Part shown: positions 4,269-31,908 of the stretch, piece by piece
Position numbering within the stretch: the first letter of the stretch is position 1
Layout of the letters: each line of letters opens with the position of its first letter
Assembly (NCBI GenBank): GCA_963732385.1
Contig: CAVSZB010000008.1
Coordinates: forward strand, 288,001-352,000
Reading direction: 5' to 3'
Length of the DNA stretch: 64,000 nucleotides
Origin: an uncultured bacterium
GTDB lineage: Bacteria; Krumholzibacteriota; Krumholzibacteriia; LZORAL124-64-63
Notes under the pieces: generated by a model
Database searches by the model: none
The model's input: only the letters and a program-made list of their open reading frames with translations
Told to the model about the DNA's origin: nothing
Translations under genes and position numbers: made by a program

Positions 4269-5198
4269 ATGACGAAGACCGTGTCTGTCCTGTGCCTCGC
4301 CGGTCTGATCGTCCTCGCCGGATGCAGCAGCCAGCAGGATCCCGTCGGCGTGTCGAACGAGAGGAGCGATGCCGCCCGGCCGGTGTGGGACGAATCGCAG
4401 GCCTCCTGCAGGATCGACGCGCCTTCGCCCGCGCTGGTGACCGATCCCGTTCAGGACCTCAAGTGGTCACAGCTGACGCACAAGAAGATCGTCTCGATCG
4501 CGGCCGCCAAGTGGGGGCTGTCGACGGCGCGCGTGACCAACCTGACCGCGGCCTCGGAGATGCCGGACGTCTACCAGTCGGGCCTCGACGCGGCCTTCAA
4601 CCAGCAGTGGTCGCACGCCTTCATGCTGACGTCGTATGGCTGGTGGTACTGGGGCGACGCCGATGACGACTTCTACGACAACATCAACCAGTCCAGCGGC
4701 GAAATCGAAAGCCCGGAAGGCTACAAGGGTCTGTCGGCCAAATACTATTATCAGGCCGCCAACCAGTACATGGGCGACTGGTACCTGGGCTACGCCTGTC
4801 ACTACATCGAGGACGTCTGCCTGGTTCTCCACACCACGATTCCCGACTGGTACATGGCCACGAAGCACTTCGCCTTCGAGACCTGGGTGGAGAACAACCT
4901 CACCGCCGGCTGGAAGCTGCTCGACGCGGTCACCGCCGACAACAGCTATTACATCGTGAGCGATCCCAAGACCGCGGTCAACCAGGCGGCCTATTACACC
5001 TCCGGTTATTACAGCAGCGTGGCCGGCAGGAAAGCCTGGGACGCCTACGTGGCCAGCGGTTTCCCGACCGCCGCCGGCACCGGCAACTCGACGCTGGTCT
5101 ACTACACGAAGTCGATGCTGGTCGACGCCGGCCGCTACGTGAAGGGGACCATCAAGTACACGCTGGACAAGTACGGACAGTGGACCAGCCGGTATTGA
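4269..5198 (+). CDS. Lipoprotein of the zinc-dependent phospholipase C / S1-P1 nuclease superfamily
   Basis: AGGAG RBS before ATG 4269; lipobox LAGC; W..TH (WSQLTH), PD, SH, LGYACHYIED, LH and H..FE zinc-ligand pattern. Confidence 0.75.
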   Translation: MTKTVSVLCLAGLIVLAGCSSQQDPVGVSNERSDAARPVWDESQASCRIDAPSPALVTDPVQDLKWSQLTHKKIVSIAAAKWGLSTARVTNLTAASEMPDVYQSGLDAAFNQQWSHAFMLTSYGWWYWGDADDDFYDNINQSSGEIESPEGYKGLSAKYYYQAANQYMGDWYLGYACHYIEDVCLVLHTTIPDWYMATKHFAFETWVENNLTAGWKLLDAVTADNSYYIVSDPKTAVNQAAYYTSGYYSSVAGRKAWDAYVASGFPTAAGTGNSTLVYYTKSMLVDAGRYVKGTIKYTLDKYGQWTSRY

Positions 5199-5256
5199 GC
5201 CGCTGGAACCGAGCGGCGTCCCCGGACGGGGTCGCCGCGACGGACGCGGTTGCGGG

Positions 5257-5289
5257 GACGGGGCGGGGCGCGGGGCGTCCCGCCCCGTC
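5257..5289 (+). terminator. GC-rich hairpin after the PLC-like gene (no U tract)
   Basis: GACGGGGCGGGGCGC / GCGTCCCGCCCCGTC, 15-bp stem with one G-U pair. Confidence 0.45.
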
Positions 5290-5335
5290 GTCTGAGGGCC
5301 GGCGCGGCGGGCGTCCGGAAACGCCGCCCCGCGCC

Positions 5336-5364
5336 TTGACAGCAGGTGCCCGCCTACTTATCGT
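5336..5364 (+). promoter_or_regulatory. Candidate sigma70 promoter for qNOR
   Basis: TTGACA-17 nt-TATCGT about 100 nt upstream of the start. Confidence 0.5.
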
Positions 5365-5464
5365 GGCCGCAGGGCAATCAGACAAAAAAGATCCGTTATT
5401 CCCGGTTTCGCTGTCCGGTCGCCGGAGGGGCGGCGGCGCGCGGTGGCGAGCGAGGAGGTCGGTG

Positions 5465-7738
5465 ATGATGAAGGATACGCGGATCAGGGCGGTGCTGCTG
5501 TTCGTCGTCGTGGCGGCGTTCACGGTGCTCATCTTCGGGGGCGCGCAGATCGCCAAACACAAGCCGCCCATTCCGGAGCGGGTGACCGGGACGGACGGCC
5601 GCCTCGTCTTCACGGGCGAGGAGATCCGGCTCGGCCAGCGGTACTACCTCGCCCACGGCGGGCAGGAGATGGGTTCGATCTGGGGGCACGGCGCCTACCT
5701 CGCGCCGGACTGGTCGGCCGATGCGCTGCACCGGGTCGCCCTCGTGACCGCCGGACTGCAGGCGGGGCTGCCGCCGGCGCAGGCGCAGCGGTTCGACCAG
5801 GCGGCGTACGAGGCGCTCGAGACCGGCCTGCGCGGCGAGGTGCAGGCGCGGACGGCCGAGGAGTTGAAGCGCAACCGGTACGACGCCGCGAGCGGGACCC
5901 TGGCGCTGTCGCCCGGGCAGGCGGCGGCGGTCCCGGTGCTCACGGCGTACTACACGACGCTCTTCCGCGACGGCAGCGACCCGTTCTCGATTCCGGCCGG
6001 CGTCGTTGACAGCGATGAGAACGGACGGCGGCTCACCGCCTTCTTCTTCTGGACCGCCTGGGCGGCGATGACCGACCGTCCCGGCGTGGACTACACCTAC
6101 ACGGCCAACTGGCCGTTCGATCCGCTCGCCGGCAACACGCCGGTGCCGAGCGCCCTGCTCTGGTCGATCGCCAGCGTCGTGCTGCTGATCCTGGGCATCG
6201 CCCTGGCGATATTCTTCTACCTGCGTTCCCACGACGAGAGCGGCGAAGAGACGCGGATCCTGCCGCTGGCCGAGCCGGCGCCCACGCCGAGCCAGCGGCT
6301 CACGCTCTACTACTTCCTGGCCGCGGCGCTGCTGTTCCTGGTCCAGGTGGGGGTGGGGTCGCTTACCGGCCACTACGCGGTGGAGGGGAACCGGCTGTTC
6401 GGCCTCGACCTCGGGAAGATCCTGCCGTACGCGGCGGCCCGCACCTGGCACCTGCAGCTGTCGGTCTTCTGGATCGCGACCTGCTGGCTCGCCACCGGCC
6501 TCTACCTCGGGCCGGCGGTGTCGGGCCGCGAACCGCGGCGACAGGCGGCCTGGGTGGCGGTACTGCTCGGGGCGTTGGTGGTCGTGGTGGTGGGCACGCT
6601 GGTCGGCACCTGGCTCGGCGTGACCGGCCGCTTCGGCGGCGGCGGCTTCCTGTTCGGGCACCAGGGGTACGAGTACCTCGACCTCGGCCGCGTCTGGCAG
6701 ATCGCGCTGATCCTCGGCATGCTTCTCTGGCTGGCGCTGGTGTGGCGCTCGATCCGCCCCGCGCTCGACCGCGAGACCGACCGCGGCGGGCTGACCCACC
6801 TGCTGCTCTACGCGTCGGTATCGATCCCGCTCTTCTACTCGGTGGGGCTGTTCTACAACCCCGGCACCCACCTCTCGATCGCCGACTACTGGCGCTGGTG
6901 GGTGGTGCACCTCTGGGTGGAGAACTTCTTCGAGGTGTTCGCCACCGTGGCCCTCGCCTTCGTGCTGACCCGCATGGGGGCGGTGCGGACCGCCTTCGCC
7001 GAGCGGACGGTCTACTTCAGCATCCTGCTCTACCTCGGGGCCGGCATCATCGGCACCTTTCACCACCTCTACTTCTCGGGCACCCCGCTGATGATCACCT
7101 CGCTCGGCGCCACCTTCTCGGCGCTCGAGGTGGTGCCGCTGACGCTGCTCGGCTTCGAAGTGAACCGCAACCTGAAGCTGGCTCGCCTCGGCGGCGACGC
7201 CGCGCCGTACCGCTGGCCGCTCTACTTCTTCATCGCGGTGGCGTTCTGGAACATGCTCGGCGCCGGCGTCTTCGGTTTCCTGATCAACCCGCCGATCGTC
7301 CTCTATTACGCCCAGGGGCTCAACACCACGCCGATCCACTCGCACGGCGCGCTGTTCGGCGTCTACGGCTTCCTGGCGATCGCCCTCGCGCTCTTCTCGG
7401 TGCGCCACATCGTGCGCCGGGAAGCGTGGTCCGACCGGCTGCTGAAGTGGTCGTTCATCGGCCTCAACGCCGGCCTTTTTCTGATGATCTTCGTCAGTCT
7501 CGTGCCGGCCGGCTTCTACCAGTTCCTGCAGGCCGTGAAGCATGGCACCTGGTACGCGCGCGGCCCCGAGGTAACCGGCTCGTCGTTCATCCACACGGTG
7601 ACGTGGCTGAGGTTGCCGGCGGACCTCATCTTCGATGTCGGCGTGGTGGCGTTCCTGGCGTTCCTGGTGCGGGCCATTGTGCTCGACCGGAAGCTGCGGG
7701 GGGGCGCGGTGGCGAAGGCGGGGGGACAGGGCCGGTAG
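5465..7738 (+). CDS. norB: Quinol-dependent nitric oxide reductase (qNOR)
   Basis: GSIWGHGAYLAPDWSAD, YTANWP, RTWHLQ, QGYEYLDLGR, WWVVHLWVE, GTFHHLYF, H.HGALFGVYG; GGAGG RBS. Confidence 0.95.
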   Translation: MMKDTRIRAVLLFVVVAAFTVLIFGGAQIAKHKPPIPERVTGTDGRLVFTGEEIRLGQRYYLAHGGQEMGSIWGHGAYLAPDWSADALHRVALVTAGLQAGLPPAQAQRFDQAAYEALETGLRGEVQARTAEELKRNRYDAASGTLALSPGQAAAVPVLTAYYTTLFRDGSDPFSIPAGVVDSDENGRRLTAFFFWTAWAAMTDRPGVDYTYTANWPFDPLAGNTPVPSALLWSIASVVLLILGIALAIFFYLRSHDESGEETRILPLAEPAPTPSQRLTLYYFLAAALLFLVQVGVGSLTGHYAVEGNRLFGLDLGKILPYAAARTWHLQLSVFWIATCWLATGLYLGPAVSGREPRRQAAWVAVLLGALVVVVVGTLVGTWLGVTGRFGGGGFLFGHQGYEYLDLGRVWQIALILGMLLWLALVWRSIRPALDRETDRGGLTHLLLYASVSIPLFYSVGLFYNPGTHLSIADYWRWWVVHLWVENFFEVFATVALAFVLTRMGAVRTAFAERTVYFSILLYLGAGIIGTFHHLYFSGTPLMITSLGATFSALEVVPLTLLGFEVNRNLKLARLGGDAAPYRWPLYFFIAVAFWNMLGAGVFGFLINPPIVLYYAQGLNTTPIHSHGALFGVYGFLAIALALFSVRHIVRREAWSDRLLKWSFIGLNAGLFLMIFVSLVPAGFYQFLQAVKHGTWYARGPEVTGSSFIHTVTWLRLPADLIFDVGVVAFLAFLVRAIVLDRKLRGGAVAKAGGQGR

Positions 7739-24914: not shown

Positions 24915-26105
24915 TCAGCGGCTGCGATCGGCAGCCCGTCGTGCCGCGGTCGTAAAGCGGTCCACCTGCTTCCGGTACTGCTCCCGATCCGGATCCGCCG
25001 CCGCCGCCTCCCGGGCGAGGTCCAGCGCTCCGCGCGGGTCGCCCCGGGCGGCGCGGATCTCCGCGGCGGTGTCGAGCGCGGCGGCCCGCCCGGCGCCATC
25101 GGCCGCCAGCGCGGCGCTGCGGCGGGCGAAGACCTCCGCCTCCTTGAGATTCACCCGGCTCTCGAAGCACCACCAGGCGAACTCGTTGAGGGCGCCGGCG
25201 TCGTCCCGCCAGCCTTCGCCGAGCGAGGCGCGCTTGAGCGCGAGGGCCCGTGCGCGGTCGTGGCCGACATGCAGGGCGTGCTCGATCTCCAACTCGCTGC
25301 GGTCGGCCTGCAGCGCCGGATCGACGATTCCCGCGGTCCGTTCGAGCGCCTCGGACAGGTACGGCTCACGCAGGGACGGCTTGTTCGCGCGGCGGGCGGA
25401 GCTGCTCATCAGATAGCCCGTCGTGAGCAACTGGTCCGGCTGCGCCTGCGGGGAGGCGAAAACCGCGGTGGCCGCCGCGCGCAGCTGGGCGGCGGTGGCG
25501 GTCTGGCGGCGGAAGCCCATGGCGACCGCCTCGAACGACGCAAAGGCATAATCCCCGGCCGGATCGAGGCGTTGCGCCTCGCCGTACCAGGTCACGGCCG
25601 CCGTGGCCTCGCCTTTCCCGGCCGCGATGCGGGCGAGCCGGACCGCATCCGGCGCGGACGGCTGGCTGCGGAAGCGGGCCGCGCGCCGGGTGACGGTGAG
25701 CGGGTCGGCCAGCGCGGCGTCGAGCCCGGCAGCGAACGGCTGCGGCCCCCCATAGCCGACCAGACGGTCGATCTCCTCGCCGGTCGCGTCCACGAGGACA
25801 AACGTGGGATAGCCGCGCACCGCGTGGCGCCTGGCCAGTTCCGGACCGGGGCCCTTCTCGGCATCGACCGGATGCAGGATGACGCGGGTGAGCGCGAGCT
25901 GCAGGAGGGAATCGCTGTCCGCCGCCCGGGCGAACTTCTTGCAGTAGCTTCACCAATCGGTGAAGAAGTCGATCAGGACCGGCTTGCCGTCTGTGGCGGC
26001 GCGGGCGAGGGCGGCGGCCAGGTCGTCCGCGGCGCGCGCGGCGGGGGGCGGGGCCAGCAGACCGGTCGCGCAGACGAGCGCGGCCAGGGCGAAGATCTTG
26101 CGCAT
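24915..26105 (-). CDS. Exported thioredoxin-fold + TPR protein with in-frame TGA at the active site (probable UxxC selenoprotein, 396 aa)
   Basis: GGAGG RBS, signal peptide MRKIFALAAL..AARA, GKPVLIDFFTDW-TGA-SYCKKF, continuing in frame to VDAEKG and the GYPTFVLVD cis-Pro loop, then TPR-like helices. Confidence 0.85.
25917..25935 (-). promoter_or_regulatory. Candidate bacterial SECIS hairpin
   Basis: mRNA GUUCGCC-CGGGC-GGCGGAC, 7-bp stem starting 14 nt after the UGA, G-containing apical loop. Confidence 0.55.
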
Positions 26106-26302
26106 GGATGGCCTCCCGTCAGGGATTCGGCGCGGCCCGGCCCTTCCGGTCCGCGGGCCACATTGTAGCAGGCGTCCGGCCCCGGTGCACCCGGCTTCCC
26201 GTCCGCCCGGTTGCCGGGTTTCCGTCGCCGCCCTTGATTGTGTCCACGGCCGCAATGAACCGGTGCGCCGGGCGCGCCTTGCCGGTAGGATGGGTGTCCA
26301 CC

Positions 26303-29161
<2,859 letters not shown>

Positions 29162-29165
29162 GCTC

Positions 29166-30506
29166 ATGGCCGTCGAGCTGAAAGTGCCCGCCGTTGGCGA
29201 ATCGATCACTGAGGTGCGGATCGCGGCCTGGTTCAAGGCGCCAGGCGAGCGGGTCGAGCGCGACGAGCCGCTCGTCGAACTGGAGTCGGACAAGGCGACC
29301 ATCGAGTTGCCGGCGCCGCAGGCGGGCATCCTCGCCGAAATCCACAAGGGGGCCGGGGCCACTGCGACCATTGGCGAAGTGATCGGCCTGCTCGCCGGGC
29401 CGGACGAGGCGCGCGGGGCGGCCGGCGCTGCCGGCGCTGCCGCATCGGGAGCGCTGCCCCGGCCGCCTACGCGTCCGGGGGGCACTCCCGTCGCGGACGC
29501 GCCGGCAGCGCCGGCCGCCCCGCGCGCCTCGTCCGGCCCGGCGGGGAAGGCCGGACCGTTCGTCATGCCGGCGGCGGCACGGGCGTTGGCGGAGCACGGG
29601 ATGGAAGCCTCCGCTGCAATTGCGACGGGCCCCGGCGGTCGCCTCCTCAAAGAGGATGTCGAGCACGCCGCCTCCTCCCACGCGCCGGAGGGGGGCAGGG
29701 GCGGAGGCGGAGCGTCCGCACCAGGATTGCCCCCGGGCCGCGGAAGCGGCCCGGGGGGCGAGCCTGGTGCGGCAGCGACGCCGCAGCCCCTGCCCCCCGC
29801 CGCTGCGCGGGAGGAGCGCGCCGTGCCGATGTCCCCCCTGAGGCGGCGGGTGGCGGAACGGCTGGTGCAGGCGCAGCAGACGGCCGCCCTGCTGACGACC
29901 TTCAATGAGATCGACATGAACGAGGTGCTGCGGCTGCGCCGCGAACACCAGGACGATTTCCAGGCGAAGCACGGGGTGAAGCTCGGGCTGATGTCATTCT
30001 TCGTGAAGGCGACCGTGGAGGCGCTGCGGGAGGTTCCGCAGCTCAATGCGGAGTTGCGGGGGACCGACCTCGTCTACCGCAGCTACTGCGACATCGGCAT
30101 CGCGGTGGGGGGGGGCAAGGGGCTGGCGGTGCCGATCCTGCGCGACGCGGAGCGGCTCGGGCTCGGCGCGATCGAGCGGGCGATCGCCGACTTCGCGGCG
30201 CGGGCGCAGAAGAACCGACTCGACCTCGAGGAGCTGCAGGGGGGGACATTCACGATCAGCAATGGCGGCGTGTACGGCTCGCTGCTGTCGACGCCGATCG
30301 TCAACCCGCCGCAGAGCGGTATCCTCGGCCTGCACACGATCCAGGAGCGGCCGGTGGCGCGCGACGGGCAGGTGGTCATCCGGCCGATGATGTACGTCGC
30401 CGTCACCTACGACCACCGGGTGGTGGACGGGCGCGAGGCGGTGTCGTTCCTGAAGCTGATCAAGGCGCGCGTCGAACAGCCGGCGCGCCTGCTGCTGGAG
30501 ATCTGA
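29166..30506 (+). CDS. sucB: 2-oxoglutarate dehydrogenase E2 dihydrolipoyl succinyltransferase
   Basis: Lipoyl site ESDKA, E3-binding [25 protein letters not shown]. Confidence 0.96.
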
Positions 30507-30519
30507 CCGGGGAGTGGTG

Positions 30520-31908
30520 ATGGAGCAGAAGCAGCACGATCTCGTCGTCATCGGCGCGGGGCCCGGCGGTTACGTGGCGGCCATCCGGGCCGCGCAGCTC
30601 GGCCTTGACGTGGCCTGCGTGGAGCGGGAGCCGGCCCTCGGTGGCACCTGCCTGCGCGTCGGCTGTATCCCGAGCAAGGTGTTGCTCGATTCGAGCGCGC
30701 GTTTCCACGAGGCGACGCACGAACTGTCGAAGCACGGCATCCGGATCGGCGACGTCACGCTCGACCTCGCAACGATGCTGGCGCGCAAGGACCGCATCGT
30801 CGGCGACCTGACGGCCGGCATCGGGCTCCTCTTCAAGCAGAACAAGGTGACGCGCTATCACGGGACGGCGCGTCTGGCCGGCCCGGGGCGGGTCGTGGTG
30901 GAAGGGCCCGATGCCGTGGAGCTCGCGGCGACGCACGTGCTGCTGGCGCCCGGCAGCCGGCCCGCCTCGCTGCCGGGGGTGGCCCTCGACGGGGACCGCG
31001 TCGGCGACAGCACGGCGGCGCTCGCCTGGTCCGTCGTGCCGGAACAGCTCGTGGTGATCGGCGCCGGCGCCATCGGTCTCGAGCTCGGTTCGGTCTGGCG
31101 GCGGCTCGGCGCCAGGGTCACGGTGGTGGAGTTTCTCGACCGCATCCTGCCCGGCATGGACCTCGAAATCGCGCGCGAGGCGCAGAAGCTGTTCAAGCGG
31201 CAGGGGATGACCTTCAAGCTGGGCGCCCGCGTCGAGGCGGCGCGGGCTGACGGTGACGGCGCCGTGGTCGAGATAGCCGGCGGGCCGCCGCTGCGCGCCG
31301 ACCGCGTGCTCGTGGCGGTGGGGCGCGCCCCGGCGACCGACGGACTCGGCCTGGCCGAGGCCGGCGTGCGCACCGACGCGAAGGGACGCATCGAGGTGGA
31401 CCCGCGGTTCGCCACGAGCGTGCCGGGAGTCTGGGCCATCGGCGACGCCATCGGCGGCCCGATGCTGGCGCACAAGGCGGAGGAGGAGGGGGTGGCCTGC
31501 GTCGAGGGGATCGTCGCCGGCCACGGGCACGTGAACTACGACGCCATCCCCGGCGTCTGCTACACCGAGCCGGAGGTCGCCGCGGTCGGGCTCACCGAGG
31601 AGGAACTGCAGGCCGCCGGGCGGGAGTTCCGCAAGGGGGTCTTCCACTTCCGCGCCAACAGTCGCGCGCGCGCCATGGGGCAGATCGACGGTCGCGTGAA
31701 AATCCTGGCCGACGCCGGCACCGACCGCGTGCTCGGCGTGCACATCATCGGTCCACGCGCCGGTGACCTCATCGCAGAGGCCGTCGCCGCCATCGCCTTC
31801 GGCGCCAGCAGCGAGGACATCGCCCGCGTCTGCCACGCCCACCCCACGCTTGCGGAGGCGATGAAGGAGGCGGCGCTGGCGGTGGACGGGCGGGCGATCC
31901 ACGGCTGA
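30520..31908 (+). CDS. lpdA: Dihydrolipoamide dehydrogenase
   Basis: GAGPGGY, GGTCLRVGCIPSK, GPMLAHKA, HAHPTLAE. Confidence 0.97.
   Translation: MEQKQHDLVVIGAGPGGYVAAIRAAQLGLDVACVEREPALGGTCLRVGCIPSKVLLDSSARFHEATHELSKHGIRIGDVTLDLATMLARKDRIVGDLTAGIGLLFKQNKVTRYHGTARLAGPGRVVVEGPDAVELAATHVLLAPGSRPASLPGVALDGDRVGDSTAALAWSVVPEQLVVIGAGAIGLELGSVWRRLGARVTVVEFLDRILPGMDLEIAREAQKLFKRQGMTFKLGARVEAARADGDGAVVEIAGGPPLRADRVLVAVGRAPATDGLGLAEAGVRTDAKGRIEVDPRFATSVPGVWAIGDAIGGPMLAHKAEEEGVACVEGIVAGHGHVNYDAIPGVCYTEPEVAAVGLTEEELQAAGREFRKGVFHFRANSRARAMGQIDGRVKILADAGTDRVLGVHIIGPRAGDLIAEAVAAIAFGASSEDIARVCHAHPTLAEAMKEAALAVDGRAIHG

Follow-up and report, generated by a model that had tools for sequence, protein, structure and literature searches.

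The gene at 24915..26105 on the minus strand of the window (the whole stretch of 64,000 nucleotides that was analysed, from an uncultured member of the Krumholzibacteriota) codes a thioredoxin-fold protein in which the UGA of codon 52 is almost certainly read as selenocysteine (Sec). It comprises 396 codons and a TGA stop. Sequence and homologs leave very little doubt that it is a real selenoprotein gene, with a domain layout that is uncatalogued in an otherwise familiar class: a probable signal peptide, a thioredoxin domain with Sec at the first position of its redox motif and a long TPR-like carboxyl terminus.

The frame begins at an ATG (26105-26103) that lies 6 nt beyond a GGAGG ribosome-binding site (26112..26116); purine-rich stretches resembling such sites also precede the chosen starts of most homologs. 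The TGA of codon 52 (25950..25952, context DFFTDW*SYC) is the sole internal stop before the terminal TGA (24917-24915). It occupies the first Cys position of the thioredoxin W-x-x-x-C motif, and the 396-aa read-through product carries the motif U52-S-Y-C55, in which Cys55 (25941..25943) is the predicted resolving cysteine. A hexamer model trained on the genome yields coding scores of 1.08 and 1.05 on the two sides of the TGA. Plain ORF calling cuts the gene into a first frame that closes at 25950 and a second of 301 aa that opens at GTG 25820, and the database entry for the gene is a 301-aa fragment. The preliminary description had proposed this start, ribosome-binding site and TGA, a 396-aa read-through open until 24915 and a gene that standard callers would split in two; every coordinate was rechecked and is correct, the open frame is there in the sequence, and the split is found both in ORF calling and in the database.

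The in-frame TGA is a conserved feature of the family. Among 43 near-full-length copies (alignments of at least 190 bits covering column 52, the window copy included), column 52 is TGA in 35, Cys in seven (TGC/TGT) and Ser in one (AGC), which excludes a TGA due to chance; left out of this count are 64 weaker rows (<=103 bits) from more distant thioredoxin proteins, all with Cys. The prevalence of Cys in homologs without TGA agrees with the earlier placement of the codon on the first Cys of the motif. Fifteen further copies consist of ten with TGA, each at column 52, and five with Cys. TGA copies are present in records named Krumholzibacteriota, Eiseniibacteriota, Zixiibacteriota, Gemmatimonadota, Acidobacteriota and Ignavibacteriota. 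The host probably belongs to Candidatus Krumholzibacteriia, since a database protein with 76% identity is labelled so and in the tree a named Krumholzibacteriia locus nests among relatives of the same family. A profile search of 201 genomes of the phylum gave 89 matches in 83 genomes. By hand count, and with the column position checked only for the fetched loci, 76 of these matches carry an in-frame TGA and 13 have no stop, two of the latter being fragments without the motif; in-frame TAA or TAG is found in none of the 89.

Downstream of codon 52 lies a bacterial SECIS-type hairpin (25917..25935, minus strand) with a stem of 6-7 bp, a 5-nt loop (CGGGC) that starts 21 nt after the UGA, and a folding energy of -9.5 kcal/mol. 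All these values lie within the bSECIS model, namely a loop of 3-9 nt, a stem of 4-16 bp, a G in the first two loop positions, a spacing of 16-37 nt and an MFE <= -7.5 (PMC13188914 section 5). The 35 TGA copies have 98.6% of their hairpin cells paired, with double changes at three of the six pairs; this paired fraction is reached by 0/500 shuffles, slid controls give 40-60%, and RNAalifold returns the same stem unaided. The eight non-TGA copies are 50% paired. In held-out copies, 60/60 pairs hold in the ten with TGA versus 12/30 in the five with Cys: the hairpin is intact in all ten TGA copies and lost in most Cys copies. One held-out copy (L130) displays a compensatory change at a previously invariant pair. 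Across these alignments, presence of the covarying SECIS-type hairpin goes with presence of the TGA. Folding of the complete 86-nt region gives no advantage over shuffles (z +0.70), so that the case for a SECIS element rests on covariation, drawn from related sequences that are not independent. The hairpin also encodes the family peptide F-A-R-A/E. FARA, FARE or near variants are found in the TGA copies (30/35 exact) versus a single one of the eight non-TGA copies (L054), which argues that the RNA hairpin constrains the protein. A genome-wide scan finds a hairpin of the family type behind 129 of 80,773 TGA triplets (0.16%), a value that serves as a background frequency rather than as a test because the hairpin pattern was derived from the same family.

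For the decoding apparatus the preliminary description had pointed to selA, selB, selC and selD or a tRNA with a UCA anticodon. The whole set is present in the host genome G000 (3.82 Mb, 95.8% complete), where selA, selB and selD all score over curated cut-offs, selD carries its own in-frame TGA and tRNA-Sec scores 66.7 bits. Sec machinery is near-universal among relatives, genomes with Cys copies included (selA in 59/60, tRNA-Sec in 57/60), and the genomes behind named loci have selA in 11/11 and selB over cut-off in 10/11. Genome G004 (88% complete) has a TGA copy and tRNA-Sec with no selA match. Three other genes of G000 are probable selenoprotein genes: selD (G000:C3:320464, minus strand) and a peroxiredoxin-like gene (G000:C7:1448240, plus strand, FTFV-TGA-PTE), both TGA-containing with a clear G-loop hairpin, and a HesB-like gene (G000:C3:376094, plus strand, GFG-TGA-GGP). 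The names peroxiredoxin-like and HesB-like were assigned from motifs listed in PMC13188914 (Table 1).

A quick tree of the family, from which L029 was omitted, has eight label changes (Sec/Cys), three of them forced by starred branches. The copy L054 (2714-2761) has TGC (Cys) together with a complete hairpin and the FARE peptide; it is the sister of the TGA copy L055, and its genome has selA and selB. The intact hairpin and this sister relationship suggest that Cys replaced Sec recently, both genes being retained in the genome. Copies also coexist in one genome: there are tandem duplicates in L041 (G034), with two adjacent TGA copies, and in L062, with a hairpin-less Cys copy immediately upstream of a TGA copy, while G046 carries a Cys copy and, at a distance from it, a TGA copy. 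One entire family of relatives, f6 (L033, L035, L036, L037, L152, L153), has mostly Cys copies, and the four of its genomes that were checked retain selA and tRNA-Sec.

The predicted protein has three parts. Residues 1-25 (26031..26105; MRK, a hydrophobic core, A-R-A) form a probable cleavable signal peptide according to sequence, a hydropathy heuristic and low pLDDT. The peptide has no twin-arginine motif, and no later membrane-like segment is detected in the protein by the heuristic, which finds an N-terminal hydrophobic stretch in 40 of the 42 members for which a start codon is present; export is probable. Residues 26-134 (25704..26030) are predicted to form the thioredoxin-fold domain, with U52-S-Y-C55 and the invariant Pro100 (GYPT), based on Pfam (PF13899/PF13098/PF00085) and structure matches. 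The read-through protein exceeds the Pfam cut-offs across the TGA for Thioredoxin_7 (53.3 bits), Thioredoxin_2 (47.6) and Thioredoxin (38.8). Residues 138-395 (24921..25694) build a predicted all-helical TPR-like solenoid with conserved LN-x-FAWWCFE and LDTAAEI motifs. The AlphaFold2 model (57-row alignment; pLDDT 94.4, pTM 0.86) features a low-confidence amino terminus, the thioredoxin domain at 26-134 and 14 further helices, and Foldseek matches the helical part to consensus TPR proteins. The TPR region of the preliminary description is upheld by this fold and by the relatives (33/57 family members match TPR_12 at E<=0.001), and not by the window protein itself, whose carboxyl terminus misses the Pfam TPR cut-off (TPR_14, 14.5 bits versus 23.5). 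Pro100 is conserved in 57/57 aligned members, and Cys55 and Cys313 each in 56/57. An unrelated TPR-tailed protein of G000 has a Cys at the place matching Cys313, which suggests that this residue is structural. A helical module at the carboxyl terminus (LN-x-LAW-x-C / ILDTLAEI) is shared by the exported-looking protein of L051 (1501-3009, minus strand; G000:C7), whose amino terminus we take to resemble DUF1028. L051 had been considered as a second TGA copy in G000 and was rejected; it codes a different protein and its TGA is a true stop.

UxxC thioredoxin-fold selenoproteins are already well catalogued and exported selenoproteins are also known. Table 1 of PMC13188914 lists a "Thiol:disulfide interchange protein" class (PF13098, UxxC, representative WP_011366075.1) and a Sec-thioredoxin class (PF00085, UxxC). 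The window protein resembles both in its thioredoxin fold, its UxxC with Sec first and its SECIS just downstream, and matches PF13098 with U-S-Y-C in place (47.6 bits against a cut-off of 27). It is unlike them in two additions, a probable signal peptide and a TPR-like solenoid of 260 residues, the comparison with the WP_011366075.1 class being by description. The words "tetratricopeptide", "signal peptide" and "periplasm" are absent from the text of that review, whose catalogue names no TPR form. Weak likeness, mainly in the thioredoxin domain, is found to NCBIfam NF041199 (Trx7/PDZ, CxxU), NF041054 (ResA-like, WAxxUGC) and NF045694 (TsoB), which differ in motifs and partner domains and score below cut-off (13.4/300, 13/300 and 42.4/805, respectively); no model of NCBIfam release-20 reaches its cut-off for the window protein. 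The nearest solved thioredoxin domains are those of 2KUC (a putative disulfide isomerase from Bacteroides), 2JU5 (DsbH) and 1VRS (DsbD-gamma), besides thioredoxins. VIA-align superposes the window domain on 2KUC with Z 14.0 (rmsd 2.1, 110 aligned), on 2JU5 with Z 13.8 and on 1VRS with Z 12.3 (rmsd 2.1-2.5 and 107-110 aligned for the three together); these solved chains consist of the thioredoxin domain alone and match only residues 24-134. A literature search found no paper on this Sec-thioredoxin-TPR family. The searched part of one supplement of genome names in BSepDB (PMC13326102) has no "Krumholz" match, and that database may hold such genes under its PF13098 class; the accessible portion of the deep-Sep work (PMC12013277) mentions neither thioredoxin nor TPR.

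The function that we consider reasonably probable is that of a periplasmic disulfide reductase or isomerase, a Sec-decoded exported thioredoxin-TPR protein fed by CcdA. SelB would bind the hairpin for tRNA-Sec to decode codon 52, and the signal peptide would direct the chain into the general secretion pathway for export. Sec52, as a selenolate, would then attack a disulfide of a client protein gripped by the TPR-like arm, Cys55 would resolve it to a selenenylsulfide, and the CcdA membrane protein of G000 would return electrons. This role is favoured because a CcdA-type gene is present while DsbB and VKOR are unmatched: G000 has one clear CcdA-type gene, adjoining a thioredoxin-like lipoprotein ORF (presumably TlpA-like), and neither DsbB nor VKOR found a match in this 95.8% complete genome. 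Among the best 150 of 230 database representatives, 74 span the redox motif, and by hand count 38 of these have C-G-P-C, the reducing motif of thioredoxins. We infer that C-G-P-C, the nearest solved domains and the CcdA gene without DsbB or VKOR support a reductive role. A distinct subgroup of representatives (P0113, P0145, P0160, P0162, P0167, P0168, P0175, P0177) has D-C-E-Y-C instead of W-C-x-x-C and may be metal-binding or of other redox potential.

The same selenoprotein could act mainly as an exported chaperedoxin like CnoX, whose TPR-like arm holds unfolded envelope proteins while Sec52 protects or mends the cysteines of these proteins during stress, a role that we regard as rather unlikely. 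CnoX/YbbN (PDB 3QOU) likewise has its thioredoxin domain ahead of a TPR domain, and Foldseek ranks E. coli YbbN/CnoX first. CnoX, which has S-x-x-C or C-x-x-C, joins holdase and redox roles, with an active CXXC in the Caulobacter form, according to the consulted part of PMC8129009. Redox-dead copies exist in the present family and suggest a role beyond catalysis: the otherwise full-length Eisenbacteria copy L057 (2875-4068) has S-E-G-A in place of the redox motif (S-x-x-A), and S-x-x-C and A-x-x-C occur among the representatives. Against these similarities, U/C-x-x-C is retained in 56/57 aligned members and the whole-chain match to 3QOU is poor (TMq 0.23, TMt 0.31, rmsd 21.5, 18% identity). 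The window protein differs from CnoX in its probable signal peptide, its Sec, its longer solenoid and a different domain arrangement. Furthermore, in the same part of PMC8129009 CnoX works with and passes clients to cytoplasmic GroEL/DnaK, out of reach of an exported protein, and the hydrophobic amino terminus of the present family (40/42, by heuristic) is at odds with a cytoplasmic location without signal peptide. A wider picture, which we hold to be doubtful, is that of a selenium-based route of envelope folding and repair in Krumholzibacteriota and other uncultured bacteria. There, an exported Sec-thioredoxin-TPR chaperedoxin would bind unfolded periplasmic proteins and reduce or reshuffle their disulfides without DsbB or VKOR, swapping Sec and Cys repeatedly despite the kept machinery.

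The predicted location outside the membrane would also suit an oxidizing DsbA-like catalyst or a reductase of peroxides, polysulfides or metal(loid)s, both of which appear improbable for this selenoprotein. The catalogue in PMC13188914 (Table 1) includes selenoproteins of DsbA-like, peroxiredoxin-like and arsenate-reductase-like type. The x-x dipeptide of the Sec copies is diverse (PS 10, GA 7, PG 6, SY 4, GS 3 and five others once each), which means that the motif does not fix the redox direction. For re-oxidation, G000 yielded no DsbB or VKOR; the model is without the helical insertion of DsbA-type proteins, its thioredoxin domain running continuously through residues 26-134, and the large TPR-like arm would better suit protein clients.

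Reading of UGA 52 by another route, as Trp or Cys, is very improbable: the sole UCA-anticodon tRNA of G000 at the default ARAGORN threshold is tRNA-Sec, this gene and many homologs terminate in TGA, non-TGA homologs have Cys and not Trp at the column, and the hairpin tracks the TGA. The preliminary description had also raised the case of close relatives with Cys and relaxed selection on this copy. Close relatives keep TGA, and codons 53-95, the stretch that the split annotation leaves untranslated, have dN/dS of 0.10, 0.19 and 0.27 in three genes of the same genus, similar to the remaining mature protein; the codons 3' of the TGA are on this measure under purifying selection, with no sign of its relaxation. 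The family is not free of genuine nonsense changes or errors, as indicated by L029 (G005:C441), whose second in-frame TGA at column 124, a position that is mostly Trp in relatives, has no family-type hairpin behind it and is probably a nonsense change or an assembly error. For codon 52, a nonsense mutation, assembly error or pseudogene with two separate ORFs has a negligible probability and is refuted by conservation, since 45 copies, some only ~30% identical and spread over several phyla, share a TGA at this column. The selection 3' of the codon also speaks against it and, weakly, so do contigs of related strains in runs X3 and X4, which cover the gene patchily and have no other letter listed at the codon.

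Database relatives are labelled "hypothetical protein" or "TPR repeat protein". The best 150 of 230 representatives (E<=1e-30) divide into 74 that span the motif and 76 without the active site. All 76 begin at or after residue 56 and eight of them open with the hairpin-encoded x-F-A-R; some may be contig-edge fragments, and "Cys" database records may include Sec residues displayed as C. A large mis-annotated family, with matches in 83/201 phylum genomes, hereby joins the bacterial selenoproteome, the known rules of Sec decoding being unchanged. Its hairpin offers an exceptionally clear SECIS series from nature, complete with compensatory changes, Cys copies as controls and one Cys copy in which a relic persists. 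Such a series can help to train Sec predictors and to follow the gain and loss of Sec. The favoured function, if true, would place selenium in the redox control of envelope proteins.

The selenoprotein gene is solitary: it diverges from sucA-sucB-lpdA on one side and converges with two L,D-transpeptidase genes on the other, and a promoter/terminator scan returned 0 sites. When the window is compared with 31 loci, the flanking genes (sucAB-lpdA, L,D-transpeptidase and FKBP) recur only in the 2-3 closest genomes, and no operon, client or electron donor is therefore deduced from context. A quinol-type nitric oxide reductase is encoded at 5180-7738 (plus strand; PF00115 and PF22085); as the sole PF00115 match of the genome is of this type, it is uninformative on oxygen respiration. 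The sucA-sucB-lpdA operon (26303-31908, plus strand) is transcribed away from the selenoprotein gene, and sucA most likely starts at 26303 rather than at the 26108 given by the ORF finder.
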